The notes: a model not told the origin generated them from the sequence alone. A DNA stretch of 64,000 nucleotides from Spirochaetia bacterium (GCA_963675665.1 OY776510.1:1088001-1152000), one strand, 5' to 3'. Positions 3,435 through 31,646 are shown, numbered from the stretch's first letter. A program made the numbers and translations.

Positions 3435-3727
3435 TCAAGTTCTCCGATTATTCTCAGAACTGATTTCAGCTCGGCTTCATCAAACCCGGCAGTTATTGAT
3501 ATTAAAAACTTTTTGGACTTCAATACAATTGGTGCAGCTGCTACAGATTGAACGGGTTTTATTTCTATTATCTCTGAGCTCTTTGACAGGTTCATACCGA
3601 ACCGTTTTCTGTGCTTATAGAAAGTATTTGGATGAATTTCAATCTCTTTGCAAAACTCCGGAATTGATTTTCCGCTCATCTGTTGTTGTTCAAATATTTC
3701 TTCCCAGTTTTTGATTATCTTCTTCAT
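3431..3727 (-). CDS. tnpA: IS66 accessory protein TnpA (HTH)
   Basis: WEEIFEQQQMSGKSIPEFCKEIEIHPNTFYKHRKR; GGAGG RBS before ATG 3727; ATGA overlap with tnpB. Confidence 0.88.
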   Translation of the reverse strand: MKKIIKNWEEIFEQQQMSGKSIPEFCKEIEIHPNTFYKHRKRFGMNLSKSSEIIEIKPVQSVAAAPIVLKSKKFLISITAGFDEAELKSVLRIIGELE

Positions 3728-3804
3728 TTCATTCCTCCGTGATTCTTTTCCCGGAGGATAGTACATTTTCAGATTTTCGCAAGAAGGAAAGAATTACCGC
3801 TTAC

Positions 3805-3812
3805 GATTTCCC
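3805..3812. repeat. IS66 target-site duplication GATTTCCC, right copy
   Basis: Identical to 1492-1499. Confidence 0.95.
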
Positions 3813-5108: not shown

Positions 5109-5180
5109 GAACCGCCGTATACCGAACGGTACGTACGGTGGTGTGAGAGGCAGAAATTTATTGATTTCTGCCTACTCGAT
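5109..5180 (+). ncRNA. Group II intron domains V and VI
   Basis: GAACCGCCGTATACCGAACGGTACGTACGGTGGTGTGAGAGG has the IIC-type CGC triad; DVI hairpin GGCAGAAAT...ATTTCTGCC with bulged A; terminal AT. Confidence 0.95.
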
Positions 5181-14043: not shown

Positions 14044-15093
14044 TTAAAGTTTGCCGGATACGCCTGCATCTTCAAATGAAGACATTTCTCTTAAAAAAGC
14101 GCATGCGTTTTCAATTACATGCATTGCAAGGGCAGCGCCTGTTCCTTCTCCGAGCCGCAGGTTAAAGTCTACAATCGGACGCAGGCGCAGTATTTCCAGA
14201 GCGACTTTATGGCCTTTTTCAACCGAATTATGCCCGGCAAATGCAAAATCGATAACAGCCGGGTTCAGCCGGGCTGCTATCAAAGCCGCTGAAGTGGAAA
14301 TAAGCCCGTCAAATACAACAGCTACCCCGTTTTCAGCAGCCGCGAGAGCAGCGCCCGCCATTCCGGCAATCTCAAGTCCGCCGATCTTCCTGAGTATGTC
14401 GATTCCGTTGTTTGCGTCGGGTTTATGGTACTCCAAAGCCTTTTGGATAACCGCCGCTTTATGTTCCAGTCCCTTTTTATCCAGTCCGGTACCGTGTCCT
14501 ACAATGTTTTCGGCCGACAGTCCGGATATTGCAGCTATAATTGCCGAAGCGGAAGTTGTATTGCCTATTCCCATTTCTCCAAGGCCGATAATCTGCAGAT
14601 TATGTTTTTTATGCATAACGAAAAATGCGTCCATTCCGGCCTGAAGGGCCCCGTAAACCTCTTCTTCAGTCATTGCCGGTTCGACGGCAAAATTGCGTGT
14701 TCCCTTGCGTATTTTTTTATCTATAAGATTTTTATCTGCCGTAAAATCGTGATTTACACCGATATCAACAACGGCCATTTCGATGTTTCCCGTTCGGCAG
14801 AACACATTTATAGCCGCCCCTCCGTTAAGAAAATTCAATACCATCTGCGGGGTTACGTCGGCAGGGTAGGCTGAAATCCCTTCTGCTGTAATTCCGTGAT
14901 CCGCTGCAAATACGATGATGCCTTTTCTTTCTACGGCCGGAACAAGGCTGTGCTGAATCAGCCCCATTTTAAGCGCAAGCTCTTCAAGAATGCCGAGAGA
15001 ACCGACGGGTTTGGTCTTTTTGTCGATTTTATACTGCAACTCCGGCTGCAGGCTCTTGTCAGTCGGTTTGATGTTCACTGTAATCTGTCTCAT
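14044..15093 (-). CDS. cobT: Nicotinate-nucleotide--dimethylbenzimidazole phosphoribosyltransferase
   Basis: KTKPVGSLG, FAADHG, GEMGIGNTTSAS, LRLGEGTGA; AAGGAG RBS before ATG 15093. Confidence 0.95.
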   Translation of the reverse strand: MRQITVNIKPTDKSLQPELQYKIDKKTKPVGSLGILEELALKMGLIQHSLVPAVERKGIIVFAADHGITAEGISAYPADVTPQMVLNFLNGGAAINVFCRTGNIEMAVVDIGVNHDFTADKNLIDKKIRKGTRNFAVEPAMTEEEVYGALQAGMDAFFVMHKKHNLQIIGLGEMGIGNTTSASAIIAAISGLSAENIVGHGTGLDKKGLEHKAAVIQKALEYHKPDANNGIDILRKIGGLEIAGMAGAALAAAENGVAVVFDGLISTSAALIAARLNPAVIDFAFAGHNSVEKGHKVALEILRLRPIVDFNLRLGEGTGAALAMHVIENACAFLREMSSFEDAGVSGKL

Positions 15094-15145
15094 GTTTCTC
15101 TTTTCTCCTTTTACCTCGGTGTGCTTTAACCCCGAGCGGGGCAGC

Positions 15146-15186
15146 AAAAAAAAGTCCTTCGCAGATCAAATCTACGAAGGACTTTT
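15146..15186 (-). terminator. Attenuator terminator of the B12 riboswitch
   Basis: Minus strand AAGTCCTTCGTAGAT-TTG-ATCTGCGAAGGACTT plus U-run, between the aptamer and the cobT start. Confidence 0.85.
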
Positions 15187-15210
15187 CCATCACCCTGGTA
15201 TTTAAAAACT

Positions 15211-15378
15211 TGCAAGGCAGGTCTCCTGGCTTGTGAATCATCGCGTATAAAACACCTTCCCGTAATCCTTAAAGACCACAGTGGCATACGTTTTAACGCT
15301 CCTCCAGTACAGTGGCGGGACCGCGCCGTTTTTCGGCTTCCCTATTCTCCCTGAACTTTTTCAGGGCACCTTGCTGTC
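15211..15378 (-). ncRNA. Cobalamin (AdoCbl) riboswitch
   Basis: Minus strand AAGGTGCC...AATAGGGAAGCCG...GCGGTCCCGCCACTGT...GCCACTG...GGGAAGG...AAGCCAGGAGACCTGCC (B12 box), upstream of cobT. Confidence 0.95.
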
Positions 15379-15515
15379 GTATTAATTTCAAAAAACCGAA
15401 TTAATATTTATCATCGACAGTCCTGTTAGTCAAGGCAGGAACACAATTAATCAGTCTAAAAACCGGGAAACGGCATGTTGACTAAGAGGTAGGTAACTGG
15501 TAAAAACAGGGTCTG

Positions 15516-19398: not shown

Positions 19399-20075
19399 CT
19401 GATACCCCTGTCCTGTACTATCCGGCCGTCATCTACAGTCAGAACTCTGTCCGCTTCACAGGCTAGCTCGTTATCGTGTGTAACAAGAAGAAGGGTCTGG
19501 TCGAGCTTTCGACAGGTCAGTTTCAGTAAATCCATTATATCGCGGCTGTTCTTGCTGTCGAGATTTCCGGTAGGCTCATCCGCCAGTACTATCGACGGCC
19601 GTGATATCAACGCTCTGCCTATTGATACCCGCTGCTGCTGTCCTCCGGAGAGCTGAGACGGAAGGTGCTCTCTCCGGTTTGTCAGGCCCAGCAGATTCAG
19701 CAGTTCATCAAGATAATCCCTGTCAATCTTTTGTCTGTCCATCAGCAGCGGCATTGCAATATTTTCCTCGGCTGATAATACCGGAAGCAGATTATTAAAC
19801 TGAAAAATAAAACCTATTTTTCTTCTTCTCAGAACAGCAAGCTGTTTCTCCGGATATTCGTAAATATCTTCGTTGTCGATAAAAACCTTTCCGTTGTCCG
19901 GCCTGTCTACTGCACCTATAAGATGTAGAAGCGTGCTTTTCCCTGAACCGCTTTGCCCGACTACAGAAATAAATTCTCCCTTTTCTATTGAGAGATCTAC
20001 ATCAACCAGAGCATTTACTCTGGTTTCTCCCATACCGTACCATTTGCTCAATTTCTTTGTTCTTACTATTTCCAT
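19395..20075 (-). CDS. ABC transporter ATP-binding protein (LolD/MacB-like)
   Basis: GQSGSGKST, LSGGQQQRV, LADEPTGNLDS. Confidence 0.95.
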   Translation of the reverse strand: MEIVRTKKLSKWYGMGETRVNALVDVDLSIEKGEFISVVGQSGSGKSTLLHLIGAVDRPDNGKVFIDNEDIYEYPEKQLAVLRRRKIGFIFQFNNLLPVLSAEENIAMPLLMDRQKIDRDYLDELLNLLGLTNRREHLPSQLSGGQQQRVSIGRALISRPSIVLADEPTGNLDSKNSRDIMDLLKLTCRKLDQTLLLVTHDNELACEADRVLTVDDGRIVQDRGIR

Positions 20076-20098
20076 ATATTCCTCAATTTATGATAGGT

Positions 20099-20154
20099 AT
20101 TATAGGGAGAGAATCTTTCAATATGGTGAATTTGAACCTTACAGTTCAGTAAGG
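20099..20154 (-). promoter_or_regulatory. Putative response-regulator-activated promoter of the ABC genes
   Basis: Inverted repeat CCTTAC-AGTTCA-GTAAGG (20137-20154); minus-strand TATAAT at 20099-20104; no consensus -35. Confidence 0.5.
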
Positions 20155-21402
20155 TAAGGTAATTATAAACTCGGCCCCGTTTCCGTCTGATCCTGAAGCC
20201 CTTATATCGCCGTTGTGCGCTTCGGTGATCATTTTGGCAAGAGACAGTCCTATTCCAACATTTTGCATGCCGGTAGAGTTGCTTCCTTTATAAAAACGTT
20301 CAAATATCCTAGGCAGTTCCGCTTCCGGAATGCCTGATCCGTTATCCTTTACGGATATTTTTAAAAAAAGCGGAGTATCTGACAAGGTGATTCTGATGAC
20401 TCCCCGCTGAGGATTTACATGTTGAATTGCATTTTTCAGAATATTGATAAATGCTTCACGAAGCCAGTTTGTATCTCCGGGAATCATGTGTATTTCATTT
20501 CTGTTATCCGAAATGCTCAAATTTATTTCCCCGGCAAGCGGTTGAAGATTTTCTACAGCCCTGTTTATCGGTTCAAGGATATTCAACGGGGTTTTTTCAA
20601 ACGAAATTGCTCCGGCTCCGAGTTTTCCTAACTGTAGAAGACTTTTTATCAGCCATTCAAGGCGTTCCAGCTGGTTTCTGCAGACCGTAAGGAATTCAGC
20701 CCGTCTGGCTTCTTCCATATGCGGTTCTTCTATCATAAGATCGTTATACATAATCAGTGAAGCTAGCGGAGTTTTCAACTGATGTGATATATCAGATATT
20801 ATATTACGCAGAAACAGCTTTTCTCCGGAAAGTTTTTCGGTTGACGACTGAACCAGTTTTACCATCTGATTAAATCTACAAACAAAAAGATCGACAATTC
20901 CTTCTTTGTGCTTTGTTTTTCCAAAAGCCGGCTTTCCGTCCAGAATGGAAATAATACAATCGGAAAGTTCAGCTATTCTGCTGTAAAGTCTTTTCTGATT
21001 GAATAAAAATCCTGAATAATTAAGAGCTGTTATTATTAGCGCAAGAATACCGAACCCTGTAACAACAGAAGGCAGCATTCCTGAATAAACCGGATTAGGA
21101 TTTTTCAGGCTGCCGGAAAGATACCCGAAACGGGCAAGATATTCTTTTCCGGGTTGTACGGAGAGTCCCGGGGCGTCCTCCAGAAGCACCGGGATGACTT
21201 TTTCAAGACTTCCGGGATAATCATTCTCAATTACTGCCGCAATTCTGAAGATTCTTTCGTCGATTCGCACGTTAATCTGATAAAGCAGAACCGTGATGAA
21301 GCCCGCAGTGAGTATCAACCCGGCAATCTGTATAAACAGCAGGGTAATTAAATGCCTTCTGTAATCCGGTGTATTGATCAGTTGATGATTTGTTATCGCC
21401 AT
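20146..21402 (-). CDS. Sensor histidine kinase
   Basis: Two TM segments, DISHQLKTPL, NILKNA, DNGSG, GIGLS. Confidence 0.92.
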   Translation of the reverse strand: MAITNHQLINTPDYRRHLITLLFIQIAGLILTAGFITVLLYQINVRIDERIFRIAAVIENDYPGSLEKVIPVLLEDAPGLSVQPGKEYLARFGYLSGSLKNPNPVYSGMLPSVVTGFGILALIITALNYSGFLFNQKRLYSRIAELSDCIISILDGKPAFGKTKHKEGIVDLFVCRFNQMVKLVQSSTEKLSGEKLFLRNIISDISHQLKTPLASLIMYNDLMIEEPHMEEARRAEFLTVCRNQLERLEWLIKSLLQLGKLGAGAISFEKTPLNILEPINRAVENLQPLAGEINLSISDNRNEIHMIPGDTNWLREAFINILKNAIQHVNPQRGVIRITLSDTPLFLKISVKDNGSGIPEAELPRIFERFYKGSNSTGMQNVGIGLSLAKMITEAHNGDIRASGSDGNGAEFIITLPY

Positions 21403-22082
21403 CTGTATCCTGTTCCTCTTATTGTTTCTATGTATTCCGGATTTGCCGGATCTTTTTCGATTTTTTCGCGAAGCCGCCTGATATATACCGACAGTGTGTT
21501 GGAGTCTACAAAATGATCGTTACTATCCCAGAGTTGTTCAAGCAGCTTGTCGCGCATTACAATATTGCCTTTATTTTCAAGAAGAACATTTACCAGCCGG
21601 AATTCTGTTGATGTAAGCTGCAGATCGCTGCTGTTTTTATAAAATCTTGCCGCCCCGCGGTCTATTGTAAAAGGGCCGTCGGAATAAAGATTTCTGCTTT
21701 GCCGTGGAGCTGAGTTTCGTCTCAGCACAGCATTTATTCTCGAAATCAGTTCGTTTACACGAAAGGGCTTTGATATATAGTCGTCTCCGCCTATGTCCAG
21801 ACCCATAACTACATTTACTTCTTCATCACATGCGGTTAAAAAGATTACAGGAAGATTTGAATCCTTGCGTATCATTCGGCAAAGGTCGTAACCATTTCCG
21901 TCTGGCAGATTTATATCAAGAAGAACTATTTCATAGCTTTTCTCAATACTTGCCGACCGGTAAAGATTCATAAATTCCGAGACGGTAAACACGGTTTTTA
22001 TTGAAAAACCGCTTTTCTTCAAAGCGTATTCAAGACCGTTCGCCAGTGATATGTCGTCTTCTACAAGCAAAACACTTTTCAT
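21393..22082 (-). CDS. OmpR/PhoB-family response regulator
   Basis: LLVEDD, LLDINLPD, DDYISKPF, IETIRGTGY. Confidence 0.94.
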   Translation of the reverse strand: MKSVLLVEDDISLANGLEYALKKSGFSIKTVFTVSEFMNLYRSASIEKSYEIVLLDINLPDGNGYDLCRMIRKDSNLPVIFLTACDEEVNVVMGLDIGGDDYISKPFRVNELISRINAVLRRNSAPRQSRNLYSDGPFTIDRGAARFYKNSSDLQLTSTEFRLVNVLLENKGNIVMRDKLLEQLWDSNDHFVDSNTLSVYIRRLREKIEKDPANPEYIETIRGTGYRWR

Positions 22083-22092
22083 GTTTTTTACC

Positions 22093-23244
22093 TTATTGTT
22101 GATGGACCCTGTTGAGGAAGTCCATAATCGCCCGCTCCGACGGCGGGCAGCCGTTGATAAAAACCGGTGCGCCTTTCGTACATATGCCGACCCCGATTTT
22201 CCCTTCCGGCAGGTCTGTTCCGCGGAAATCCTGCCCGATACAGATTGAGCCGCGGGTAAACCTGTCGACGGCCTCGGGGTTTGCGGCCTTTATCCTGCGC
22301 AGGGCGCCTGCAAGGTTTCCGAAACAGGCTGAGCAGGCTGAGCGCTGATCTACAATTTTATTAATCCAGTTTTTTACAGCGGAAGCTTCGGTTTCATTAC
22401 GGCTTCCGATGTTTACGACCGTCTGCTTTTGTCTGCCGCCGGGGTTCGTTATATCTTCTTTTGAGACGGAGGAAGTGCCGACCCCGTATGATTCCGCTAT
22501 GGCTATATATTTAACAGCAGTCTTATCAATATCAAGAAGGCTGCAAGCATAGCTGTCGATTGAAACCGAATCTCTGCCGAGCAGGAGCAGGTCTCTCTTC
22601 TCCGGGCTGCCGCCTTCTTCCCAGTACGGGTCTCCGTTTAAGCCGTCGACAAGGGTGAAGGCGGGTTTGATAACCGTATTCAGCAAGGCTACCGGCATAT
22701 GGACGCCGAGGCTGTGGTAGCGCCGTTTCTCACTGTCGGGGATGCAGCCTTTCAGATTTTTAAGCGCGCATGTCAGTTTTGTCTGTCCGTGCCCTTTGAG
22801 TACCGGAAGATTTACCAGGCTGCCGCCGTTTTGCCGTAATTCGACAACAGTTCTGCATATTTTGAGTTTTTCGCCCTGCGTTTCGATTTCTGTAAAGTCG
22901 TCTTTCTGAAGATCAATCAGCTTTACGCCGTAATGTTTAGAAAGGGCTGTATAACCGCAGGCCTTATAGGCTTTAACTGTTGAATCACCCACCCATGAGC
23001 CTTCGGTGATTGAAATTCGGTAATATCCCTTTTCTTTTAAGTATTCAATCACTGCAGCAACAATTTCAGGATGAGTTGTCGCCCCTCCTGATGCAGGCTT
23101 GCTTACAACAAGGTTTGGTTTGAGCAGAATCGGGGCTTCTTTCAATCCTAGCCAGTCGCAGGCTCCGGCTGAATCAAGCAGCTTGAAGATGTCTTTTGTA
23201 AGTTTACTTCTGTCTTTATTTAGAATTTGCCATATAACACTCAT
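22093..23244 (-). CDS. DUF362 domain protein with Cys-rich C-terminus
   Basis: LLKPNLV, TTHPE, NLPVLKGH, ALKNLKGC; CSAC, IGVGICT and GCPP; ATGA overlap with the upstream vWA gene. Confidence 0.8.
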   Translation of the reverse strand: MSVIWQILNKDRSKLTKDIFKLLDSAGACDWLGLKEAPILLKPNLVVSKPASGGATTHPEIVAAVIEYLKEKGYYRISITEGSWVGDSTVKAYKACGYTALSKHYGVKLIDLQKDDFTEIETQGEKLKICRTVVELRQNGGSLVNLPVLKGHGQTKLTCALKNLKGCIPDSEKRRYHSLGVHMPVALLNTVIKPAFTLVDGLNGDPYWEEGGSPEKRDLLLLGRDSVSIDSYACSLLDIDKTAVKYIAIAESYGVGTSSVSKEDITNPGGRQKQTVVNIGSRNETEASAVKNWINKIVDQRSACSACFGNLAGALRRIKAANPEAVDRFTRGSICIGQDFRGTDLPEGKIGVGICTKGAPVFINGCPPSERAIMDFLNRVHQQ

Positions 23245-24578
23245 TGTCCTTTACTATAAACAGTTGTTTCAGGCATGTCAAAGACGATAGTACTGCCTTC
23301 AATTCTAATAACATCTCCGGGAGCAAGCTTTTTGTTTTTCAATTTACGGTTGTTGACATGAACAGGTTTTTCGCTTACCAGGGTATATGTTCCGGTTTTT
23401 GCATCATTAAGAATTGTTGCATGATGAGCATCAACCCCCGGGTTTCCGGCGATTGTATAATCAGCATCCTTATCGGCCCCGATTATTGTGGCTTCGCCGC
23501 TCAGAACTGTTTTTCCGCCTGTTCCTACGGATTGAATTTGTGCTTCGCCTACCGCTTTTTCATAAGGTATTAAATACAGCGCGGCAAGGCCTCCCGTTCC
23601 GCAGAAAAGTATTATCAGAATAATCAGAAGATGCTGCCCCGAGGATGTTCCGAACAGTGCCGGTGTAAGCACGGTGCGGCTGTCGCTGTTTCCGTCGTAT
23701 TCAACAGAGATCTTTGCGGAAGTATTTTTAAACGGGGGCGCTGCTACCGTAATTCTGTATTCTTTCAGAATTCTGTCCCTGATTTCGGTATAAACGTTTT
23801 CTATTTCGTTTGTCGATCTGACATCATAAAAACTGCCGCCGGTTTGCATGCATATCCTTTGAAGTTCCGCGTCGCGATTGTCCGAAATATTAATCCCGTC
23901 GAGAGAGATTCCTGCGTTGTGAAATAATCTGATTAAATCATCCGGTGCTGCTGTAGTGCTTCCCCATACAGAGTTTAGTTTACCGGTCCGGTTGTATAAT
24001 GAAAAATTTTCTCCGTCCGAGAGAACAATGACGGCCTTTCGCCCGCCTTCTTTCGGGAATAGCGACGTTATTTCAGCAAGGGAATTGTACAGTTCTGTAT
24101 AAGCTTCATCGGGCCGAGGTTGCCTCAGCGCCGATATGCTCCGCCTTATCTCTGCAGGGTTTGACCCGAACCCGGCAAGTTTGTCAAGATTTGTATTGAA
24201 TGCATAAACAGCGGCACGATCTTCGGATGAATCCATCTGATCCAGAAACGAATTAAGAGCAAGTTTTGCCTGGGCTATTCTTATACTGCCCTGATAACTT
24301 TCGTCATACATTGAACCCGAGTTGTCTATAAGAAGAAGAAAATCAATGCCGGCGTTTTTATTGGGCGCCGATTCAAAGGATATTATCTCAAGAAGTCCCA
24401 GATCTTTTTCAGTTACCTGAAAATTTTCAGCAAGGGCGTCTTCAGGCGCTGTGAAATAGATATCCATCCGGCCTTTCAGCAGGAGGTGGTTGGTGTCAAT
24501 CTGGCTGATCTTCACTTCCTGTGCTGAAAGAGGAAAAAGAAAAGCGGATATAATAAAAACAAAAAGCAGTTTTTTCAT
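23241..24578 (-). CDS. Exported vWA domain - TM - cytoplasmic FHA-like domain protein
   Basis: Signal peptide; MIDAS DNSGSM, TELYN, VLSDG; TM; C-terminal TIIGADKDAD...VDAHHATI...VNN...LAPGDVIRIEG. Confidence 0.82.
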   Translation of the reverse strand: MKKLLFVFIISAFLFPLSAQEVKISQIDTNHLLLKGRMDIYFTAPEDALAENFQVTEKDLGLLEIISFESAPNKNAGIDFLLLIDNSGSMYDESYQGSIRIAQAKLALNSFLDQMDSSEDRAAVYAFNTNLDKLAGFGSNPAEIRRSISALRQPRPDEAYTELYNSLAEITSLFPKEGGRKAVIVLSDGENFSLYNRTGKLNSVWGSTTAAPDDLIRLFHNAGISLDGINISDNRDAELQRICMQTGGSFYDVRSTNEIENVYTEIRDRILKEYRITVAAPPFKNTSAKISVEYDGNSDSRTVLTPALFGTSSGQHLLIILIILFCGTGGLAALYLIPYEKAVGEAQIQSVGTGGKTVLSGEATIIGADKDADYTIAGNPGVDAHHATILNDAKTGTYTLVSEKPVHVNNRKLKNKKLAPGDVIRIEGSTIVFDMPETTVYSKGQ

Positions 24579-24593
24579 GGAATTTCTCTCCTG

Positions 24594-25493
24594 TCAGCCA
24601 GGCAGATACAATAGTTTAAGGCTTCCCAGCTGAATCACATCCTGATATTTAAGATATTTTTTGCCTGATACGGGCTTATCGTTAAGAAGAGTAACTTCAG
24701 TATTCTCCGGGAGCGCAGGGGTTTCTGAAGGTTCAAAGAAAATCTCGTAACCGTCTTTTTCAACCACGGTTTTAGGTATCGACTTGTACCCATGGATATA
24801 AATATCGCTTCTCATTGCAGGGCCGACAACGGTCCTTTTTTTAATCAGCAGATACTCCCTGTTTTTTAATTTGCCGTTAAGAACTTTCAATCTTCCGTAA
24901 CTGAACCTGCGTTCAAATTCCCCGAGAAAAACCCCTATGAGTATACCCATTGCGGCAAGCCCGGAAGCGCGGACCGCGAAATTCTGCGGGTAATAGACGG
25001 TTAAAAACCCGTAAAGCAGACCCCCGGTCAAACCTCCCGCAAGCCCTCCGAGGATACCGGCTACAGCTCTTCTTGCTGTTTTCTTCAGTATTCCGTCGAT
25101 AGCGCCTATGGAGATTCCCATAAACATCCACCCTGTTCCGCGCCAGATCGGCAGTATAAGATCTATTGATTTTTCATAATCCATGTTAAGCAGATTGGCG
25201 CTGAAAAGCATTCCCCGGGATGCTGTTATCTGTGAAGCTGCAGCTATTATCGCCCCGGTCGCAGCTGAAACAGCTGCATTAAATATTCCGCTCTTTAATT
25301 CCTTATATACTATTGCGTCAGTAAAACCGAAAGTGAATCCGAAAATCAATCCCAGGGCAGCCCCCTGCAGCAGAGACAGTTGAAGATAACTTTTAAACCC
25401 GGAAATATTCATTATTTCGATGATTGAAAATGCTGTCAGTCCGGCACATAATCCCGTTAATATATAAACAATCGTTTTATTTCTTTGTGTCAT
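24594..25493 (-). CDS. Polytopic Gly-rich membrane protein with C-terminal FHA-like domain
   Basis: About 6 Gly/Ala-rich TM helices, then LKVLNGKLKNREY...VVG...SDIYI...LLND...LKYQDVIQLG. Confidence 0.72.
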   Translation of the reverse strand: MTQRNKTIVYILTGLCAGLTAFSIIEIMNISGFKSYLQLSLLQGAALGLIFGFTFGFTDAIVYKELKSGIFNAAVSAATGAIIAAASQITASRGMLFSANLLNMDYEKSIDLILPIWRGTGWMFMGISIGAIDGILKKTARRAVAGILGGLAGGLTGGLLYGFLTVYYPQNFAVRASGLAAMGILIGVFLGEFERRFSYGRLKVLNGKLKNREYLLIKKRTVVGPAMRSDIYIHGYKSIPKTVVEKDGYEIFFEPSETPALPENTEVTLLNDKPVSGKKYLKYQDVIQLGSLKLLYLPG

Positions 25494-25502
25494 GTTTTCT
25501 CC

Positions 25503-27065
25503 TTAATTGTTAAGCGGAACCAGTTCCGTCTGAAAATGGACTGAAATCTGCCCGGCTTTTATGTTCAGAACCCATTCCTGTTTTTCATAGCCGTCCGCCG
25601 TCATTCGGAAGTTGCAGACCTCACCCGACAGAACCACAGTGTCTTTAACCGGTATAAATTCTCCGTTCCGGTAGACCTCGAGAACCGTTTTTCCGGAGAG
25701 ATCCCAACCGCTTTCGGCGTCGAGGACCTGAAAGGTCAGTTTTACAGGCGCAGGCATTGTCGGGGGTAAGGAAAGCAGTATTTCAGAACCGCGTCCGGCT
25801 TTTTCCCACGGTACTATCCGAAAAGAGTTCCAGATTATTTTTTCGCCTATAAGAGTTTTTGCCCTGTATTTTCCTTCAGGCAGGTATAACGGCAGTGAAT
25901 AATATCTTTCTTTAAAAGGCAGATACCGGACCTTCAATCCTGCCGCCGGAATATCTTTTCCGTCGTCGAGAAAGATCTCAGTATGCGGGATTACAGTTGA
26001 GTCCGAATCCGGGATGTCTGAAGAGAATCTCACCTGTCCGAACCCGGAAGGAGATAATATCCGTTTATGCAGATCTGTCATACTGCTTAAGCCTGCAAAA
26101 GAAGCTGATAAGACAGCAATAATAATCACAGCCGCGATTACCGGTTTGAACATTTTTTTATTTTTCTTTTTCAGCGGAGGCGCGGTTTCCTCCTTAATCA
26201 GAAGACGAAGATGTTCTTTTAAATCTTCGGTTTTATAGGCAGCCAGCCATTTCCCGAGTTTAATGATCAACCGGTCAATATTTTTATACCTGGATCCGGG
26301 CTTTGGCTTTATCAGCGAACGGATAATTCTTTGCAGTTCGGACGCAATTGACGGGTTTATCTTTCCCGGTTTTTTATATTTTCCCTTCCTGATCATCCTC
26401 ATTGTTTCCGGTGTGAACCCGCCGGGGAATGGTTTAAGTCCCGTAAGCATTTCATACATCATTATGCCCAGCGAATATAAATCAGCCCTGTAGTCGACAG
26501 TTCGTGAGTTCTCAAACTGTTCGGGCGCCATATAAGCCGGGGTTCCCAGGGTTGTCCCGTCGGCGGTCAGGCTGTCTTCTCCCGTGTCCGGGTTTCCTGC
26601 AGACGCAATACCGAAGTCGGCAAGTTTTATTTCACCGTCCCTGGATATTAAAACATTGGCGGGTTTGATGTCCCTGTGAACAACACCCCTGGAATGTGCA
26701 TATTTCAATGCTTTTGCAGTATAAAGCGTAATGTATGCAGCGGTACAGTTGTCAAGATAGCGCTGCTGCTCAATCAGCTCCTTAACCGACATCCCGTCGA
26801 TATATTCCATTACAATATAATGGCTTCGGCCCTGAATAAAATGGTCCTGAACATCAACAATATTATCGTTTCTGAAATCAAGGAGGATTTTTGCTTCGCG
26901 TCTGAAACGTTCGGTTATTGTTGCATTGCCTCTGAGCGTCAGTTTCTTCAGGATTACCGGACGGTCAAGGGTTGGGTGAATACCTTTATAAACAGCGCCC
27001 ATTCCGCCTTCGGCAACAAGTTCTTCTATCCGGTATTTATCAATTTTATCAGGTATTCTGGCCAT
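25503..27065 (-). CDS. Transmembrane Hanks-type Ser/Thr protein kinase
   Basis: EGGMGAVYKG, HRDIKPANVL, KLADFG, GTPAYMAPEQ; TM VIAAVIIIAVLSASF; extracytoplasmic tail. Confidence 0.95.
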   Translation of the reverse strand: MARIPDKIDKYRIEELVAEGGMGAVYKGIHPTLDRPVILKKLTLRGNATITERFRREAKILLDFRNDNIVDVQDHFIQGRSHYIVMEYIDGMSVKELIEQQRYLDNCTAAYITLYTAKALKYAHSRGVVHRDIKPANVLISRDGEIKLADFGIASAGNPDTGEDSLTADGTTLGTPAYMAPEQFENSRTVDYRADLYSLGIMMYEMLTGLKPFPGGFTPETMRMIRKGKYKKPGKINPSIASELQRIIRSLIKPKPGSRYKNIDRLIIKLGKWLAAYKTEDLKEHLRLLIKEETAPPLKKKNKKMFKPVIAAVIIIAVLSASFAGLSSMTDLHKRILSPSGFGQVRFSSDIPDSDSTVIPHTEIFLDDGKDIPAAGLKVRYLPFKERYYSLPLYLPEGKYRAKTLIGEKIIWNSFRIVPWEKAGRGSEILLSLPPTMPAPVKLTFQVLDAESGWDLSGKTVLEVYRNGEFIPVKDTVVLSGEVCNFRMTADGYEKQEWVLNIKAGQISVHFQTELVPLNN

Positions 27066-27074
27066 AATTCTCCC

Positions 27075-28100
27075 TTAAAATAAAGAATTGTCCTTCAGAC
27101 AGACTATGTCCCTATCCGGTTTAAAGAGCTTCATATCAGTAAATGCGGCTATAACCCATTTGTTCGGGGTGTTTATCTGGATATAACGCCCGTCCTGACG
27201 TAGAGAATATCTTCCTGATACAGGCCGGTGCCCTCCGAAAATTCTGCCTTCTTCAGAAGTGATTCCGAAGTTGTATAGTGTTGAAATTACGCTGCCGGGT
27301 TCAGCTGACCCGTTATCGGTCCAGGTAAGATTGTATATTACGTCATCAGTATCATAGGCATTTATAACCTCGTTTCTTGTAAGGGCACGCCCGGGTTCGC
27401 AATGACTTACCAGAAAACCCGGGCCTTCGGCCATAAGGGGAAGGGATTTTTCCCATACCCGGATAAGCCTGAGAATTTCTTTGCCCAGAAACGTTTCAAC
27501 CCACTGTTTAACCATTTCTCCCTCAAAAACGAATTTCCTGAACGGGAAATTGCCCTCGCCTTCTTCGTTACCGATATTCTCATGATTACCTTTAAGAAAA
27601 TGGAACTGCCGGGGCAGTGTGCTTTTTACAATTGCAAGCATTTCAAGCAGACCCAGATTTTCCCGCATTTCAAGATCCATGTGTTTATGCTGTCCGAACC
27701 CGGCCAACCACTCTTTCATTGCTTTTTGCCATCTTTCGCGTCCGCGCACTTCACTGTGAAAGGCGTCTCCTACACAGACTACCTGTGCCAGACCGTCGGC
27801 CATGTCGGCTAATACGGACCGGCCGGAAAACCCTGACCAGTTCATAACGGCTGAGAAAAAATCCATCCTTCCGTGAAGGTCGGGGATAATTATAAAGTAT
27901 CCTCCATGAGACAGTCTCACCAGGCTGCCGGAGCCTCCCCTGTCTGAAGCCGGCCGGACTTCTGCCGGTTCGTTGTATAGAGCATTGATTCCGGCCGTTA
28001 GAGAGTCTTTTAGCGCCTTTTTTGAGGGAAAATTCCCGCGGTTCAGAATGTCTTCAAGCATCGCGGGAATTTCCTGCCGGTCGATGTTCCTGCCTCTCAA
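27075..28100 (-). CDS. Calcineurin-like metallophosphoesterase (candidate protein phosphatase)
   Basis: PDLHG, VGDAFH, KGNHE, VSH and GGHRP motifs; TTG start. Confidence 0.82.
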   Translation of the reverse strand: MRGRNIDRQEIPAMLEDILNRGNFPSKKALKDSLTAGINALYNEPAEVRPASDRGGSGSLVRLSHGGYFIIIPDLHGRMDFFSAVMNWSGFSGRSVLADMADGLAQVVCVGDAFHSEVRGRERWQKAMKEWLAGFGQHKHMDLEMRENLGLLEMLAIVKSTLPRQFHFLKGNHENIGNEEGEGNFPFRKFVFEGEMVKQWVETFLGKEILRLIRVWEKSLPLMAEGPGFLVSHCEPGRALTRNEVINAYDTDDVIYNLTWTDNGSAEPGSVISTLYNFGITSEEGRIFGGHRPVSGRYSLRQDGRYIQINTPNKWVIAAFTDMKLFKPDRDIVCLKDNSLF

Positions 28101-28108
28101 AACCTGCC

Positions 28109-28642
28109 TCAGTTTTCCTGAATTGTGGTTTTATTGATTGAAGTGAAATCCTCGGCAATAAGCAGTGTAACTTCGTCAAGCAATCCTGCCTCTTCTTCCG
28201 GCAGCATTTCTTCCTTTACAACTGCAATCGCATATACCGGGCTGCTCTTTTGGATGGGACCTTTTTCAAATTCGACAGGCATTCCCTTTATGACGTTATC
28301 GTTCAGTATGGATTCTTCTTCGGAGGCTGATTCCGGAACATCGTTCCGCAGCCCGATGCTGAAATATTCAACATTTCGGAAATCATTGATTTCCGGGCCG
28401 ATATTAATCAGTGAACCGGACCATGTCATTATCAGAGCGCCCCTTTGATCATTAATATCGAGGTTGTCGGTTTCTTCCATCTCCCGCTGTTTTGTCTGTT
28501 CCATGAACGCCTGATGTTTTTCAAGCCATCCGCCGGCCATCAGTTCAAGCGAATCTTCGCTGTTTTCCAACCCCGCAGTTTTTACCAGTTTCTTTATATG
28601 TGTCTGCACTTCAGGTTCCAGACCGTTAAATTTTTCACCCAT
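28109..28642 (-). CDS. Hypothetical protein (177 aa), paralog of the N-terminal domain of 28881-29753
   Basis: AGGAG RBS before ATG 28642; shared blocks RGALIMTWSGSLINIGP / RGMMVLTYSGSILSIGP. Confidence 0.8.
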   Translation of the reverse strand: MGEKFNGLEPEVQTHIKKLVKTAGLENSEDSLELMAGGWLEKHQAFMEQTKQREMEETDNLDINDQRGALIMTWSGSLINIGPEINDFRNVEYFSIGLRNDVPESASEEESILNDNVIKGMPVEFEKGPIQKSSPVYAIAVVKEEMLPEEEAGLLDEVTLLIAEDFTSINKTTIQEN

Positions 28643-28692
28643 TTTTTTCTCCTGAAAAATGATCTTGCCGCGACGGCAGATCATTATATATA

Positions 28693-28758
28693 TGAAGTTT
28701 GGAAGCAACGCTTCCAAACTTCAAAAAACATAAAAGACACGGATGTACTTTATGTTTT
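28693..28758. repeat. Two-hairpin intergenic element, copy 1
   Basis: TGAAGTTTGGAAGC-AAC-GCTTCCAAACTTCA, then AAAACATAAA...TTTATGTTTT; related copy at 60566. Confidence 0.75.
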
Positions 28759-28880
28759 ACAGCTGCGAACATAATCCTATCCCCGTTTTCAAAAAAAAAC
28801 CATTTTTTCCGGTAAAATTTGAAAAAAAGTTGTTTTTCAGACGAATTTGATCTATTTTTTGATATGAAGAGAGGAAGGAT

Positions 28881-29753
28881 ATGGATAATAACAGTAAATT
28901 TACGGATCTGCCGAACGCCATACAGCATCATCTGGCTGGTCTTGCAGCGGACTTGAAGAGGCAGAATGATCCTGAATATATGAAAATGCTTTCTGATGTA
29001 TGGTTCCGAAAAGAAGAACTTTTCAGACAGCAGGTCAGGGCAATGAAACTGGTTTTTACGGATGAAGTATCGAACAGGGACACCCGCGGAATGATGGTTC
29101 TTACGTACTCCGGGTCAATTCTCAGTATCGGCCCTGTTTTTTTAACCAGCACAAATATAAATTCCAGCAGATGGATAGAATATTCAAGTATTAAATTGCG
29201 GACCGAAGTTCCCGATATATTAATCGAAAAAAACGCAACGATTTCAGCGCCGTTATTTGCAGGCAAGCCTGTTCTGCTTGAAAATTCCAGGGTTAAGGCT
29301 ACAAGTCCGGCATATATGCTTGCGGTCTGCCCTGAAGGACTGAACGAAGAGGAGCAGGATAAAAGAATTCGTGAAAGTTCTGTTTTTATTACTGCCGGGT
29401 TTATGAAATACAATCGAAGTCTGCAGATTGACAGTAAATTTATTCCTGATCAGTTTACCATGAAATCAATGACGCGTTTTCTTGCAAAGAAGCACGGGCT
29501 TACCGGACAGGAGGCTCGGCTGATAATAGATGATTTCCTGTCTCTTATCGAAACAGGAATGCTGATGGGCGAATCGGTGCCTTTCGGGCGGCTGGGGCGT
29601 TTTTCCGTTAAGATGCGCGACGCTCAAAAACCCCGTGTAATCCGGCATCCTGTTTCCGGAGATGAAATGACTGTAAAGGCAAAGCCTGCAAAGGGTGTTC
29701 CCAAGATTTCTTTTTCAAGTTATATGAAGGAACGTGCAGAAGGTATTTTGTAA
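28881..29753 (+). CDS. Unknown N-terminal domain fused to a C-terminal HU/IHF-like DNA-binding domain
   Basis: C-terminal TMKSMTRFLAKKHGLTGQEARLIIDDFL...GESVPFGRLGRFSVKMRDAQKPRVIRHPVSGDEMTVKAKPA. Confidence 0.85.
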   Translation: MDNNSKFTDLPNAIQHHLAGLAADLKRQNDPEYMKMLSDVWFRKEELFRQQVRAMKLVFTDEVSNRDTRGMMVLTYSGSILSIGPVFLTSTNINSSRWIEYSSIKLRTEVPDILIEKNATISAPLFAGKPVLLENSRVKATSPAYMLAVCPEGLNEEEQDKRIRESSVFITAGFMKYNRSLQIDSKFIPDQFTMKSMTRFLAKKHGLTGQEARLIIDDFLSLIETGMLMGESVPFGRLGRFSVKMRDAQKPRVIRHPVSGDEMTVKAKPAKGVPKISFSSYMKERAEGIL

Positions 29754-29861
29754 ATAATGTAAATTATGTAAAGAGAATGTAAAACATCGACGGATTTCGT
29801 GAATAAATTGATTTATGAAATAATCTATTTTATATGTCGAAGTGCATTATTGGAGATTATC

Positions 29862-31646
29862 ATGAAATACAGATTTATTCTTTTATCCGTTATGTTCATA
29901 ATTTTGCTTTTTATTACATCCTGCGGGAAAGATTCAACAACAGACGACTCAACAACGGGCAACTATAATACGGATACAGGGGGTACTGTTTCGGAAGCCT
30001 CAACAGATGCGGATGAGGCTATGGATCTGAATACAGCCTCACATGAAAGCGACGGGGATTATTCCTTTGACACAGCGGATGTCGTTTCTGTAGTTCTCGG
30101 AGATTCTTCAATTACCATAAACGGTACGGATTATGATTCTTATTCGGGGTCGGGGTTTTCCCGGGATGCCGAAAACAGCATTCTAACTATAACGGAAGCA
30201 GGGGTGTACAGTTTGTCGGGAAGTTTCAGCGACGGACAGGTTGTAGTCAACACTGCCGATGAGGATACGGTGAAAATTATTCTGGATGGGGTATCAGTAG
30301 CCTGCTCGGACAATGCACCTTTGTACATCGAAGCCGCGACGAAAGCAGTAGTTTTCCTTGCTGAATCGACATTGAGCAGCCTTTCTGATTCCGATCGGGA
30401 GAGCGGGATGAAAGCTGTTTTATACAGCGATACGGATCTCAGTATTTGCGGAAGCGGCAGTCTTTCCGTTGAAGCGAACTATAAAGACGGTATTACAGCT
30501 AAAGAAGGTTTGATTATCAACAGCGGCACCATCGAAATAAATTCCGCAGATGACGGGATTCAGGGTGAAGATTACATTATAGTTGAAAACGGGAATATTA
30601 CCGTTTCGGCGGGAGGAGACGGATTTAAAACCGATAATGATTCTGATGAAGGTCTCGGGTATATTTATATAAACGACGGGACCTTTGATATTACAGTACT
30701 AAATGACGGAATACAGGCGGACACCGATATCATCATCAAAGACGGCGATTTTGAAATAAACTCCGGCGGGGGGAATACGGTTGAATTATCGGATGACAGC
30801 GATTCCTGCAAGGGAATCAAAGCGGATGTCAGCATAGTTATCGACGATTGCAGCTTTGATTTTGATACGGCGGATGATTCTGTTCATTGCGACGGTGATA
30901 TCGTTATAGGAAACGGAAGCTTTACAATCAAGGCGGGTGACGATGGAATTCATGCGGATACGTCGATCGAGATAAACGGGGGAGATTATGTGATCTCCAG
31001 GTCATATGAGGGAATAGAAAGCGCGCTGATAACGATAAACGGCGGGAATTTCCATGTGACAGCTGATGACGACGGGATTAATGTGGCGGGCGGTACGGAT
31101 TTTTCAAGCCCGGGATCATTTAACCAGTCGGGTAATTATTATCTTTATATAAACAACGGGTATATAGTTGTAGATTCCGACGGGGACGGTATTGATGTTA
31201 ACGGAACTATTATAATGACAGGAGGCTTGGTAATAGTTAACGGACCGACTGAATCCAATAATGGAGCTATCGATTATGATTTATCTTTTACCATCAGCGG
31301 CGGTACTCTTATAGCTGCCGGCAGCGCCGGTATGGCCCAGGCTCCGGGAACGGCCTCAACCCAATATAGTCTTAATATTGTTTTCGGCAGTAATTTATCA
31401 CCCGGCACAATAATCCATATCAGAAATTCAGACGGCGACGGGATTCTGACGTTTGCTCCGTCAAAATCTTTTCAGTCCCTGATCTTTTCCTCGGACAGTA
31501 TTGTTTATGATTCCGACTATTATCTTTATACCGGAGGAAGCGCCACCGGGAATAAGACGGACGGCCTTTATACAAACGGAACATACACCCCGGGCACCCT
31601 TTATGGAGATTTTACCGTATATGGTGTTGTCACAAATATAGATTAG
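29862..31646 (+). CDS. Carbohydrate-binding beta-helix lipoprotein (Cthe_2159/DUF4353-like)
   Basis: Lipobox FITSC; repeated I-x-x-G-x-x-x-I-x-A-x-D-D-G-I motifs; NGAIDYD. Confidence 0.85.
   Translation: MKYRFILLSVMFIILLFITSCGKDSTTDDSTTGNYNTDTGGTVSEASTDADEAMDLNTASHESDGDYSFDTADVVSVVLGDSSITINGTDYDSYSGSGFSRDAENSILTITEAGVYSLSGSFSDGQVVVNTADEDTVKIILDGVSVACSDNAPLYIEAATKAVVFLAESTLSSLSDSDRESGMKAVLYSDTDLSICGSGSLSVEANYKDGITAKEGLIINSGTIEINSADDGIQGEDYIIVENGNITVSAGGDGFKTDNDSDEGLGYIYINDGTFDITVLNDGIQADTDIIIKDGDFEINSGGGNTVELSDDSDSCKGIKADVSIVIDDCSFDFDTADDSVHCDGDIVIGNGSFTIKAGDDGIHADTSIEINGGDYVISRSYEGIESALITINGGNFHVTADDDGINVAGGTDFSSPGSFNQSGNYYLYINNGYIVVDSDGDGIDVNGTIIMTGGLVIVNGPTESNNGAIDYDLSFTISGGTLIAAGSAGMAQAPGTASTQYSLNIVFGSNLSPGTIIHIRNSDGDGILTFAPSKSFQSLIFSSDSIVYDSDYYLYTGGSATGNKTDGLYTNGTYTPGTLYGDFTVYGVVTNID

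Follow-up and report, generated by a model that had tools for sequence, protein, structure and literature searches.

The stretch of DNA analysed here, which we call the window, is 64,000 nt long and comes from a Spirochaetia bacterium (GCA_963675665.1 OY776510.1:1088001-1152000); positions are counted from its first letter. All seven genes that a preliminary description had placed between positions 22,093 and 29,753 are present there. Together with the region between the two divergent genes, they are:

22093-23244, minus strand: DUF362 gene (Pfam DUF362, 7.5e-49), outside the conserved unit
23241-24578, minus strand: vWA-TM-FHA, in which a signal peptide and an exported, MIDAS-bearing vWA domain are followed by one TM helix and, in the cytoplasm, a degenerate FHA domain
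24594-25493, minus strand: TM-FHA, a glycine-rich protein of about six TM segments that ends in a cytoplasmic FHA fold
25503-27065, minus strand: Hanks-type Ser/Thr kinase with a single TM helix and, C-terminal to it, about 190 aa forming an extracytoplasmic domain
27075-28100, minus strand: PPP-like metallophosphoesterase, judged from its motifs and model to be probably the module's Ser/Thr protein phosphatase
28109-28642, minus strand: sm, the first gene of the operon, encoding a 177-aa soluble protein with a single domain of unknown family (the sm domain)
28643-28880, no strand: putative shared divergent control region between sm and the HU fusion
28881-29753, plus strand: HU fusion, divergent from sm; residues 1 to about 185 form an sm domain, and the C-terminal part is an HU/IHF DNA-binding domain

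From sm to vWA-TM-FHA the coordinates leave gaps of 8, 9, 9, and 15 nt, and vWA-TM-FHA and the DUF362 gene overlap by 4 nt. The tight, co-oriented string of genes reported previously is therefore real, but it does not end at the DUF362 gene as had been proposed, since after a gap of 10 nt it runs on through a response regulator, a histidine kinase, an ABC ATPase, and an FtsX permease to position 16834. The ATG at 28642, at which we start sm, agrees with the MGE start of its homologs. At a strict hydropathy threshold no TM segment was found in sm, the phosphoesterase, or the HU fusion.

In a genome scan a relative was found encoded in 111 species genomes, and 80 loci were kept, 78 of which are named as spirochaete taxa. 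These loci were chosen by the presence of sm, and the linkage counts that follow hold for sm-bearing loci. Downstream of sm the phosphatase gene was colinear in 72/77 loci, the kinase gene in 70/70, the TM-FHA gene in 66/66, and the vWA-FHA gene in 61/61; the phosphatase gene was missing in three loci (L046, L061, and L066) and displaced in two. The order sm, phosphoesterase, kinase, TM-FHA, vWA-TM-FHA was intact in 57 of the 61 loci of sufficient length. The preliminary description had named a lack of co-conservation as the finding that would count against it, and what we observed is the opposite: the kinase, the phosphoesterase, both membrane FHA proteins and the first gene are conserved together and in order. 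Its second proposal, that an HU-fused paralog of sm lies divergent from the operon, describes the usual arrangement, with the HU fusion adjacent and divergent in 55/75 loci, elsewhere in the locus in one, and not found in 19; the core can therefore be expected to work without an adjacent copy. The DUF362 gene, which had been counted as a member, has a homolog in only one of the 80 loci (L005), where it lies beyond the HU fusion, and is thus a local passenger. Conservation places the end of the unit at 23241, not at 22093. A five-gene membrane kinase/phosphatase cluster, built mostly of familiar parts, is thus conserved in many spirochaete species.

Residue conservation in the families was read from alignments of hand-picked subsets (25–28 out of 50–67 ORF-called orthologs). 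The kinase is an unambiguous Pfam match (Pkinase 7.9e-53, 180 bits against a cut-off of 31.7), as are all 26 aligned orthologs. Hanks kinases are defined by the β3 Lys, HRD...N, DFG, and APE motifs, and in the 26 sequences K40, H130-R131-D132, N137, D150-F151-G152, P181-E182, and the activation-loop residue T167 are invariant. A single TM segment is predicted from hydropathy at residues 303–332, and the domain that follows it gave weak leads to PEGA or CarboxypepD_reg (2/26 members, Atlas scores of 0.84–0.85).

The phosphoesterase is more divergent. The window protein falls slightly short of the Metallophos cut-off (E 5.1e-4, 21.0 bits, cut-off 21.5), and the family was found in 26 of 29 orthologs at E<=0.01 (best 2.1e-8). 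The dinuclear metal-site motifs DxH, GD, GNH[ED], H, and GH are all present (n = 29), with D74, H76, G111, D112, G171, N172, H173, H233, G290, and H291 invariant. A Foldseek search with the structural model (pLDDT 92.9) returned 178 PDB matches at E<=1e-3, of which the best 50 were all PPP phosphatases (PP5, PP1, PP2A, and RDGC; E ~2e-11, TM 0.55–0.63). The full PPP signature is GDxHG / GDxVDRG / GNHE; the spirochaete proteins have PD[LIV]H[AG]R as motif 1 and GDxxH, without DRG, as motif 2, and the family profile matched PPP sequences in the PDB only around GNHE (E 1e-3). We consider the phosphoesterase to be PPP-like and probably the Ser/Thr protein phosphatase of the module. Both enzymes look active, the kinase based on its invariant catalytic and activation-loop residues and the phosphatase based on its invariant metal ligands and the PPP-like fold of its model.

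The kinase domain also bears on a possible anti-phage or conflict role of the cluster, akin to TerY-P or kinase-based defence and implied by the phage-challenge assay proposed earlier, since it matches the PADLOC kinase models PD-T4-6 (5.8e-76) and mad6 (7.4e-70); the genes flanking the module also differ from locus to locus, consistent with such a role. However, PADLOC (PADLOC-DB 2.0) matched only one of the seven proteins, through its generic kinase domain, which leaves the idea unsupported. Neither the cluster nor the 60 ORFs of the window contained a PP2C, Ter, nuclease, or other effector family, the base composition of the cluster resembles that of its surroundings, and the module is restricted to one phylum, within which identity to the window proteins drops in parallel across its genes (rank correlations 0.42–0.80). 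We therefore regard a defence function as very improbable.

The two FHA proteins are the membrane components that accompany the kinase. TM-FHA has about six hydrophobic segments by hydropathy, and twelve glycines in this region are invariant across the family. In the vWA protein hydropathy identifies an N-terminal signal-like segment and a TM segment at residues 307–339; its vWA domain is well supported (VWA_2 8.8e-15, 55.7 bits against a cut-off of 27), and the MIDAS motif, DxSxS...T...D, is complete, with D85, S87, S89, T161, and D188 invariant in 26 sequences. The FHA-like matches of the two window proteins were both weak (1e-3 to Yop-YscD_cpl, Pfam), but within the TM-FHA family Yop-YscD_cpl was matched by 25/26 members and FHA by 17/26. 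The TM-FHA profile matched the FHA domain of GarA at 6e-9 and Rv0020c (FhaA) at 1.4e-6, and the vWA-FHA profile matched the FHA domain of Rv0020c at 8e-8.

According to the accounts of FHA domains drawn on here, the pThr-binding residues are an Arg in the β3-β4 loop and a Ser in the β4-β5 loop. At the corresponding positions of TM-FHA, read from an alignment to GarA, Arg is present in 2/26 sequences, Ser in 4/26, and His in 18/26; for vWA-FHA, in which the columns were positioned by eye on the G...H pattern, the counts are Arg 1/26, Ser 0/26 (Lys 13, Asp 6), and His 23/26. Both window proteins lack the Arg and the Ser. As judged from profiles and alignments, both domains are real FHA folds that nearly always lack the pThr-binding Arg and Ser. 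The general rule that FHA domains read pThr, which had been applied to these proteins, does not carry over to them, and because they cannot be assumed to be pThr readers, the usual link between a kinase and an FHA partner is removed.

A different precedent is offered by SctD/YscD, since Yop-YscD_cpl is the best Pfam match of both domains. As described in the source drawn on here, the cytoplasmic domain of SctD, an inner-membrane protein, adopts an FHA fold with neither the phosphate-binding Arg nor the Ser, as in both spirochaete domains, and docks its partners without pThr. By analogy, the spirochaete FHA domains may be phospho-independent docking modules. The likeness is limited to this domain; the membrane and periplasmic parts are unrelated and no secretion-system genes accompany the cluster in the window.

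The sm domain is the least familiar part of the module. It has no match in Pfam, NCBIfam, or PADLOC, and its 51 homologs, where named, are all spirochaetal. The AlphaFold2 model (pLDDT 87, pTM 0.84) had no Foldseek match at E<=1e-3 in either the PDB or BFVD (viral), and the family profile found no sequence relative in the PDB. The proposed paralogy of sm with the N-terminal half of the HU fusion was confirmed (29% identity over 175 residues, E 8e-29). The remainder of the HU fusion, for which 97 homologs were found, matches Bac_DNA_binding at residues 195–286 (3.5e-11, 43.6 bits against a cut-off of 22.4) and reached no NCBIfam HU or IHF equivalog cut-off, making it a divergent HU/IHF member. 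The sm domain was found fused to HU, to DUF2442, and, in ten representatives, to an unnamed C-terminal domain, and one protein carries it after a vWA-TM segment, where the FHA domain would otherwise be. These sequence contexts indicate that it is a portable module. In 13 of the 80 loci a small FHA gene lies between the HU fusion and sm; it retains the canonical GR and SxxH residues and may provide a link to phospho-recognition.

The residues common to the two paralog families include T73, S75, G76, S77, R89, Y93, S95, R99, D101, and P103, together with W39 and K42, and can be interpreted in two ways. The T-x-S-G-S hairpin among them is a candidate phospho-acceptor. The conserved polar residues, however, would be equally suited to a ligand-binding pocket: most of the shared positions are polar or aromatic (W39, K42, R89, Y93, S95, R99, and D101), and a fold without a known relative does not reveal its function. 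The sm domain would then sense a small molecule or nucleotide instead of accepting phosphate; the HU fusion would be a DNA-binding protein under ligand control, and sm itself a ligand buffer or an adaptor reporting to the kinase and phosphatase. We think this improbable, given that sm matched no ligand-binding family in Pfam, NCBIfam, and PDB profile searches, and that its tight linkage to the kinase and phosphatase genes, together with the canonical FHA gene, points to phospho-signalling.

Our preferred interpretation, to which we assign a probability of about 0.5, is that these genes form a Spirochaetota-specific, vertically inherited Ser/Thr signalling module that spans the inner membrane and has the sm-domain proteins as its likely cytoplasmic targets. 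The retention of gene order amid variable flanking genes and the parallel drop in identity across the genes speak for this reading. The kinase and the two FHA-fold proteins would form one membrane scaffold, as is suggested by the occurrence of TM-FHA and vWA-FHA as a single ORF, and hence a single polypeptide, in two species (L014 and L020). Kinase activity would change in response to a periplasmic event, sensed through the vWA domain, the kinase ectodomain, or both, and the PPP phosphatase would reset it. The phospho-state would be handed to the sm-domain proteins, presumably at the T-x-S-G-S hairpin, and we infer that a phospho-relay extends to the HU fusion, whose phospho-state would change its DNA binding, most simply at the A/T-tract region between the divergent genes.

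The same components could instead serve the envelope itself. The kinase and phosphatase would then control the assembly or gating of a glycine-zipper complex of TM-FHA and the vWA protein, for instance in envelope homeostasis by analogy to Bat-type vWA proteins, with sm serving the phosphatase or kinase as a regulatory or targeting subunit and the HU fusion at most a transcriptional regulator of the operon, not a signalling output. Consistent with this are the twelve invariant glycines, the fact that sm always adjoins phosphatase or kinase genes (with the 8-nt gap in the window), and the retention of the core in the 19/75 loci without an adjacent HU fusion; PPP phosphatases also commonly act with regulatory subunits. 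In addition, the vWA domain is nearest to membrane vWA proteins of the BatA/BatB type, its closest solved relatives (PDB 3ibs, 4jdu, and 4rck; profile matches from 7e-19 for 4rck to 6e-8 for BatB), although in NCBIfam this likeness is weak (VWA_BatA_Lepto 1.6e-6, with 27 bits far under the cut-off of 380). To our knowledge, Bat proteins are linked to MoxR-type ATPases, not to kinases, and carry no FHA domain. Against an envelope-directed reading, sm is kept in the three loci from which the phosphatase is missing, its varied C-terminal fusions suit a signal receiver better than an enzyme subunit, and the HU fusion is adjacent in most loci (55/75). On balance we regard an envelope-directed role as unlikely, while giving it serious weight.

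Literature searches found no description of this architecture, in agreement with the earlier impression that it is uncharacterized. By analogy, its nearest precedent is the archaeal Arn network. In Sulfolobus acidocaldarius this is described as comprising ArnA (FHA), ArnB (vWA), the kinases ArnC and ArnD, and the phosphatase PP2A, and as controlling gene expression (PMC6509490). On that description, four domain types are common to both systems (FHA, vWA, Hanks kinase, and PPP-family phosphatase), and the claim that known kinase/phosphatase/FHA/vWA modules all use PP2C no longer holds, PP2A being of the PPP type. The TM-FHA and vWA-FHA profiles also weakly match the ArnA/ArnB structure 8s05. 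There are, however, substantial differences. The ArnA FHA domain is described as binding phosphorylated sites on ArnB (PMC6509490), whereas the pThr-binding Arg and Ser are missing from both spirochaete FHA domains. The spirochaete kinase and both FHA proteins are anchored in the membrane, with the vWA domain exported, while the account drawn on here does not describe the Arn proteins as membrane proteins. By hydropathy, the FHA and vWA domains of the one spirochaete protein lie on opposite sides of the membrane, and the sm domain and HU fusion are absent from Arn. The Arn proteins are soluble, and we know of no Arn genes forming one operon.

Three bacterial systems show more partial similarity. 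The TerY-P triad consists of a TerY-like vWA protein, a PP2C phosphatase, and a Ser/Thr kinase, and the spirochaete cluster shares the genetic linkage of a vWA protein to a kinase and phosphatase pair. We rejected membership because the phosphatase is PPP-like and Pfam identified no PP2C in the cluster or among the 60 window ORFs, and thus none near the vWA and kinase genes; the spirochaete vWA domain is also exported and joined to a cytoplasmic FHA domain. The PpkA/PppA/Fha1 pathway of the T6SS likewise combines a membrane Hanks kinase, a phosphatase, and an FHA protein, but PppA is a PP2C enzyme and the FHA domain of Fha1 reads pThr, unlike the PPP-like phosphatase and degenerate FHA domains found here. 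Membership in this pathway was rejected as well, as no T6SS family occurs among the 60 window ORFs (Pfam). The actinobacterial FhaA/FhaB-PstP-RodA-PbpA-PknA/PknB cluster is similar in that a conserved operon encodes two FHA proteins, of which one is membrane-anchored in the actinobacterial case, a phosphatase, and a TM Hanks kinase. Its phosphatase is a PP2C, and it includes genes for cell-wall synthesis, whereas no SEDS/PBP genes were found in the spirochaete cluster or among the 60 window ORFs, and the spirochaete module has the vWA domain, the sm domain, and the HU fusion.

The putative control region at 28643-28880, the simplest candidate site for the HU fusion in the signalling module that we favour, was aligned with seven relatives. 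The alignment revealed a conserved core of about 75 bp, with A/T tracts and the palindrome GCAGCTGC; in addition, the window has its own insertion of about 90 nt, which contains two hairpins. Across loci L001-L012 the A/T-tract motif was present in 12/12 and GCAGCTGC was located 34–41 nt upstream of the sm start in 11/12, and by this comparison the putative control region is conserved within the clade of the window.

All genes that the preliminary description listed for this region were present as described, and the topologies proposed for their products agree with hydropathy. The genes considered here are as follows.

28881-29753, plus strand: HU fusion, 290 aa, a paralog of sm with a C-terminal HU/IHF domain, divergent from sm and 238 nt from it
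28109-28642, minus strand: sm, a soluble 177-aa protein of no known family, made up of a single domain (the sm domain)
27075-28100, minus strand: metallophosphoesterase
25503-27065, minus strand: Hanks-type kinase
24594-25493, minus strand: TM-FHA, a multi-TM protein with a C-terminal FHA-like domain
23241-24578, minus strand: vWA-FHA, with a signal peptide, a vWA domain, a TM segment and an FHA-like domain
22093-23244, minus strand: DUF362 protein

The coordinates give intergenic distances from sm to DUF362 of 8, 9, 9, and 15 nt, and then a 4-nt overlap. The six-gene string had been described as ending at DUF362; however, tightly spaced co-oriented genes continue beyond it and spacing alone, therefore, cannot delimit the unit. 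This continuation (16834-22082, minus strand) encodes an OmpR-type response regulator (10 nt after DUF362), a histidine kinase (overlapping by 10 nt), an ABC ATPase (after a further 70 nt) and an 854-aa FtsX/MacB-type permease (overlapping by 4 nt), a layout which we take to resemble Bce-type peptide-sensing/detoxification modules. A sigma-70-like site (23253-23281, minus strand; TTGACA, 17 nt, TATAGT) that matches at 11 of 12 positions lies within the final part of the vWA-FHA gene, shortly before DUF362 begins, and hints that DUF362 may have its own promoter, with promoter-like sites in the region not clearly commoner than in shuffled sequence. Neither promoter nor terminator scans rose clearly above shuffled sequence (25 vs. 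17.7±4.6 and 17 vs. 12.4±3.2, respectively) and these counts were therefore not used for operon limits. The base composition of the cluster is like that of its surroundings.

The limits of the unit are indicated by its conservation. An alignment of the window sm with 13 of its 50 non-window homologs was used to scan one genome per prokaryotic species, and 119 stretches were matched, 111 of which encoded a relative. The best 80 of these loci (L001-L080) were kept; the record titles of 78 carry a spirochaete taxon and those of the other two say only "bacterium." Genes were counted by tblastn of the window proteins against the 80 loci, because for several loci of high GC content (clusters c5, c7, c9, and c36) ORF calling picked shadow ORFs on the antisense strand, and only loci with enough sequence beyond sm were counted. 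The loci were selected through sm and all co-occurrence counts are conditional on its presence. The phosphatase is colinear after sm in 72 of 77 loci (displaced in L041 and L080, absent from L046, L061, and L066), as are the kinase in 70/70, TM-FHA in 66/66 and vWA-FHA in 61/61. The gene-neighborhood comparison of sm homologs supports the grouping of these genes as one system, in that the order sm, phosphatase, kinase, TM-FHA, vWA-FHA is intact, with all four genes colinear after sm, in 57 of 61 loci. The HU fusion is the divergent neighbor in 55 of 75 loci; one further locus (L074) has it at another position, and it was not found within the remaining 19.

The conserved unit is thus five genes plus, usually, the HU fusion. 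DUF362, which had been counted as a member, has a homolog in one of the 80 loci (L005), where it lies beyond the far side of the HU fusion. The window response regulator and histidine kinase have weak matches of low identity (23-37%) in a few loci, at other positions and from generic families, and therefore show no conserved linkage; matches to the ABC ATPase and FtsX/MacB-type permease among the 80 loci are likewise weak, of low identity and at other positions. The remaining flanking genes vary from locus to locus. On the other side of the window cluster, 45 nt downstream of the HU fusion and on the same strand, is a gene for a 615-aa protein, probably a lipoprotein, with a Cthe_2159 carbohydrate-binding domain (29799-31646, plus strand; 1.6e-88), of which the 80 loci contain no homolog. 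Identity to the window proteins declines in parallel across the genes (rank correlations 0.42-0.80), and the module looks vertically inherited within Spirochaetota. That the module exists as a real unit is close to certain.

Both enzymes are expected to be active based on their conserved residues. The kinase-domain profile matches all 26 aligned sequences, in which the catalytic Lys, the HRD...N, DFG, and APE residues and the activation-loop Thr are invariant. Its extracytoplasmic C-terminal domain gave weak PEGA or CarboxypepD_reg leads in 2 of 26 members, and in an Atlas search no match to this ectodomain reached 0.9 (best 0.87; PEGA leads of 0.84-0.85, below evidence level). Taken alone, the window phosphoesterase (5.1e-4) and both FHA domains (~1e-3) fall below the Pfam cut-offs; these assignments, weak in the single proteins, are upheld at the family level. 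In the phosphatase, D74, H76, D112, N172, H173, H233, and H291 are invariant in 29 sequences and correspond to the full dinuclear metal-site set of the calcineurin-like superfamily. The 50 best PDB matches of its AlphaFold2 model (pLDDT 92.9) are all PPP-family protein phosphatases (E ~2e-11, TM 0.55-0.63). We refer to it as PPP-like and not as a standard member, because its sequence similarity to PPPs is limited to the GNHE region and the classical GDxVDRG motif is not kept in the 29 sequences of the family. The family has 865 members at E<=1e-5 and, among the best 120, all named ones are spirochaetal.

The FHA domains of TM-FHA and vWA-FHA are, at the profile level, true FHA folds, and in nearly all sequences they lack the residues by which such domains bind phosphothreonine. 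Phosphate is bound by two residues, the Arg of the beta3-beta4 loop and the Ser of the beta4-beta5 loop. Each alignment contained 26 sequences, the window protein with 25 of 53 (TM-FHA) or 25 of 50 (vWA-FHA) ORF-called orthologs. With columns taken from the GarA alignment, TM-FHA has the Arg in 2/26 and the Ser in 4/26; with columns placed by eye from the conserved G...H pattern, vWA-FHA has the Arg in 1/26 and the Ser in 0/26, the latter position being Lys in 13 and Asp in 6. The Lys may still contact phosphate. The best Pfam match for both domains is to the cytoplasmic domains of SctD/YscD, which likewise lack the phosphate-binding residues and dock partners independently of phosphothreonine. 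The membrane part of TM-FHA has 12 invariant glycines. The MIDAS set of the vWA domain is kept (D85, S87, S89, T161, and D188), and its closest solved relatives are membrane vWA proteins of the BatA/BatB type. In two loci, TM-FHA and vWA-FHA form one continuous ORF (L014:13190-15478, 763 aa; L020:7742-10255, 838 aa), which argues that the two act jointly. In these fused ORFs the one-time signal peptide would serve as an additional TM helix.

The first ~180 residues of the HU fusion are 29% identical to sm (E 8e-29), and residues 195-286 match the HU/IHF family (3.5e-11). The sm model (pLDDT 87, pTM 0.84) begins with helices, continues with a sheet region of seven strands and ends in a long helix, with no PDB match at E<=1e-3 (best TM 0.24) and none in the viral structure library. 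A search of the sm profile against PDB sequences found no relative, the best match, a proteasome subunit (E 0.015), being taken as chance; an Atlas search gave no lead (best 0.81, none at 0.9). Conserved in both the sm and HU-fusion families are T73, S75, G76, and S77, at a hairpin between two strands, as well as R89, Y93, S95, R99, D101, and P103. The profile used for the exhaustive HMM search included HU columns, and most of its 2395 weak hits are therefore probably plain HU proteins; we used the ~86 representatives at E<=1e-30, nearly all of ~175 aa (sm type) or ~290 aa (HU type), along with the other architectures listed. These are 10 representatives of ~300 aa with an unnamed C-terminal domain of ~120 aa, one protein with DUF2442, and one 701-aa protein that carries an sm domain in the FHA position, behind a vWA-TM segment resembling the one in vWA-FHA, a single case that could be an assembly or deletion artifact. 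Proteins P0234, P0208, P0232, and P0194 show the alternative architectures.

Between sm and the HU fusion is an intergenic core of ~75 bp (within 28763-28880) with phased A/T tracts and a GCAGCTGC palindrome, which is conserved in the clade of the window, whose proteins are only 57-73% identical to those of the window. The A/T-tract motif is present in 12/12 loci (L001-L012) and the GCAGCTGC palindrome lies 34-41 nt before sm in 11 of these 12. We consider the core a candidate shared promoter or operator, and A/T-tract bent DNA is a plausible target for HU. Between the core and the sm start, the window has an insertion of ~90 nt (28657-28762), absent from seven aligned relatives, with hairpins at 28694-28722 (13-bp stem) and ~28657-28682, the latter followed by a T run. 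A full-length plus-strand match to the Rfam TD-2 RNA (RF03162) fell short of the gathering score (41 vs. 48.7 bits; E 1.1e-4 when 701 nt were searched) and is a lead only, being absent from the whole-window search at E<=0.01. In 13 of the 80 loci (L013, L018, L019, L021, L023, L024, L030, L037, L049, L051, L053, L056, and L059) the interval between the HU fusion and sm contains a small gene on the HU-fusion strand, whose product (123-151 aa by ORF calls) is an FHA protein in which the GR and SxxH residues are canonical. This gene is absent from the window.

The conserved gene set is self-contained, consisting of a membrane kinase, a PPP-like phosphatase, two membrane FHA proteins and two paralogous soluble proteins. 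One FHA-fold protein exposes its MIDAS vWA domain outside the cytoplasm, and the FHA folds of both are cytoplasmic. In the mechanism that we propose, the two FHA-fold proteins and the kinase would assemble into a complex at the membrane; kinase activity would be set by an event in the periplasm, acting on the vWA domain or on the kinase ectodomain, and the phosphatase would reverse its effect. The sm-domain proteins would receive the signal and, in the case of the HU fusion, DNA binding would be altered, most simply at the shared control region. We give this mechanism as a whole, from envelope event via kinase and phosphatase to the sm-domain proteins and HU fusion, a probability of about 0.5. 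Its weak link is the step to the HU protein, because an adjacent HU fusion is missing from 19 of 75 loci. An envelope-directed module, in which sm would serve one of the enzymes as a subunit and the HU fusion would do no more than regulate locally, is possible and carries appreciably less weight with us. That the sm domain is a ligand sensor we think quite improbable. A defense system is not favored, because PADLOC matched a generic kinase domain only, in one of seven proteins, the 60 window ORFs include no effector or PP2C family, and the distribution of the module follows a single phylum; we regard it as very improbable.

Within the proposed relay, a more specific and, in our estimate, unlikely reading would make the sm domain a previously unseen fold and the dedicated acceptor of a Hanks-type kinase/PPP phosphatase pair, with interchangeable outputs, docked on two phospho-independent FHA domains that act as a membrane scaffold, with input from a MIDAS vWA sensor in the periplasm. 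The outputs seen with the sm domain are HU DNA binding, DUF2442, the unnamed C-terminal domain and the stand-alone form. If true, this would be a Ser/Thr-kinase counterpart to the receiver-plus-output logic of two-component systems, and an sm domain that proves to be a phospho-acceptor with swappable outputs would found a new signaling domain family.

All of the enzymatic and adaptor domains belong to known superfamilies, and the kinase/phosphatase/FHA/vWA theme is established. The TerY-P triad includes a PP2C by definition, the T6SS PpkA/PppA/Fha pathway is defined by T6SS genes and a PP2C, and the actinobacterial Fha/PstP/PknAB cluster has a PP2C along with cell-wall genes. The cluster described here, in contrast, has no PP2C and no cell-wall genes, and T6SS genes are missing from the window. 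Among known systems, the archaeal Arn network is the nearest; it regulates archaellum gene expression and is made up of ArnA (FHA), ArnB (vWA), two kinases (ArnC and ArnD) and a PP2A phosphatase (PMC6509490). The statement in the preliminary description that modules of this type use PP2C is, in view of Arn, too strong, as is the view that they have no gene-expression output. The cluster differs from Arn in its membrane topology, degenerate FHA domains, sm domain and HU fusion. A full-text literature search found no description of this architecture. Passages of an eLife survey of vWA-centered conflict systems mention FHA and PP2C in other contexts only, and "kinase" and "FHA" do not occur in the main text of an HU superfamily survey (PMC5499826). 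The module is real, conserved and uncharacterized. Its novelty lies in the sm domain with its HU fusion, in a phosphatase of PPP-like type, in two FHA domains that have both lost phosphothreonine-binding residues, and in a vWA domain that is exported.

Hanks-type kinases are widespread in bacteria and, to our knowledge, most lack a known output. The present kinase/phosphatase pair is locked, across at least 111 species of spirochaetes, in one operon with few candidate partners, among them a protein of unknown fold and its HU-fused paralog. The operon narrows the candidate substrates to a few that can be tested, and it offers a plausible path leading directly from a signal at the envelope to DNA binding. 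It is also a bacterial case in which FHA folds beside a kinase lack the phosphothreonine-binding residues and the partner phosphatase is PPP-like and not PP2C.

Two other features of the window were noted. A gene for a DBI_PRT (CobT-type) phosphoribosyltransferase (14044-15147) is preceded by a cobalamin riboswitch (15199-15388, minus strand; 114.7 bits, E 5e-28). A group II intron (1054-5180) shows domain matches at 1054-1340 and 5110-5180 and encodes a reverse transcriptase/maturase at 3842-5107; it is seemingly interrupted by an element of the IS66 family, whose TnpB and transposase ORFs (1522-3766) run on the opposite strand.
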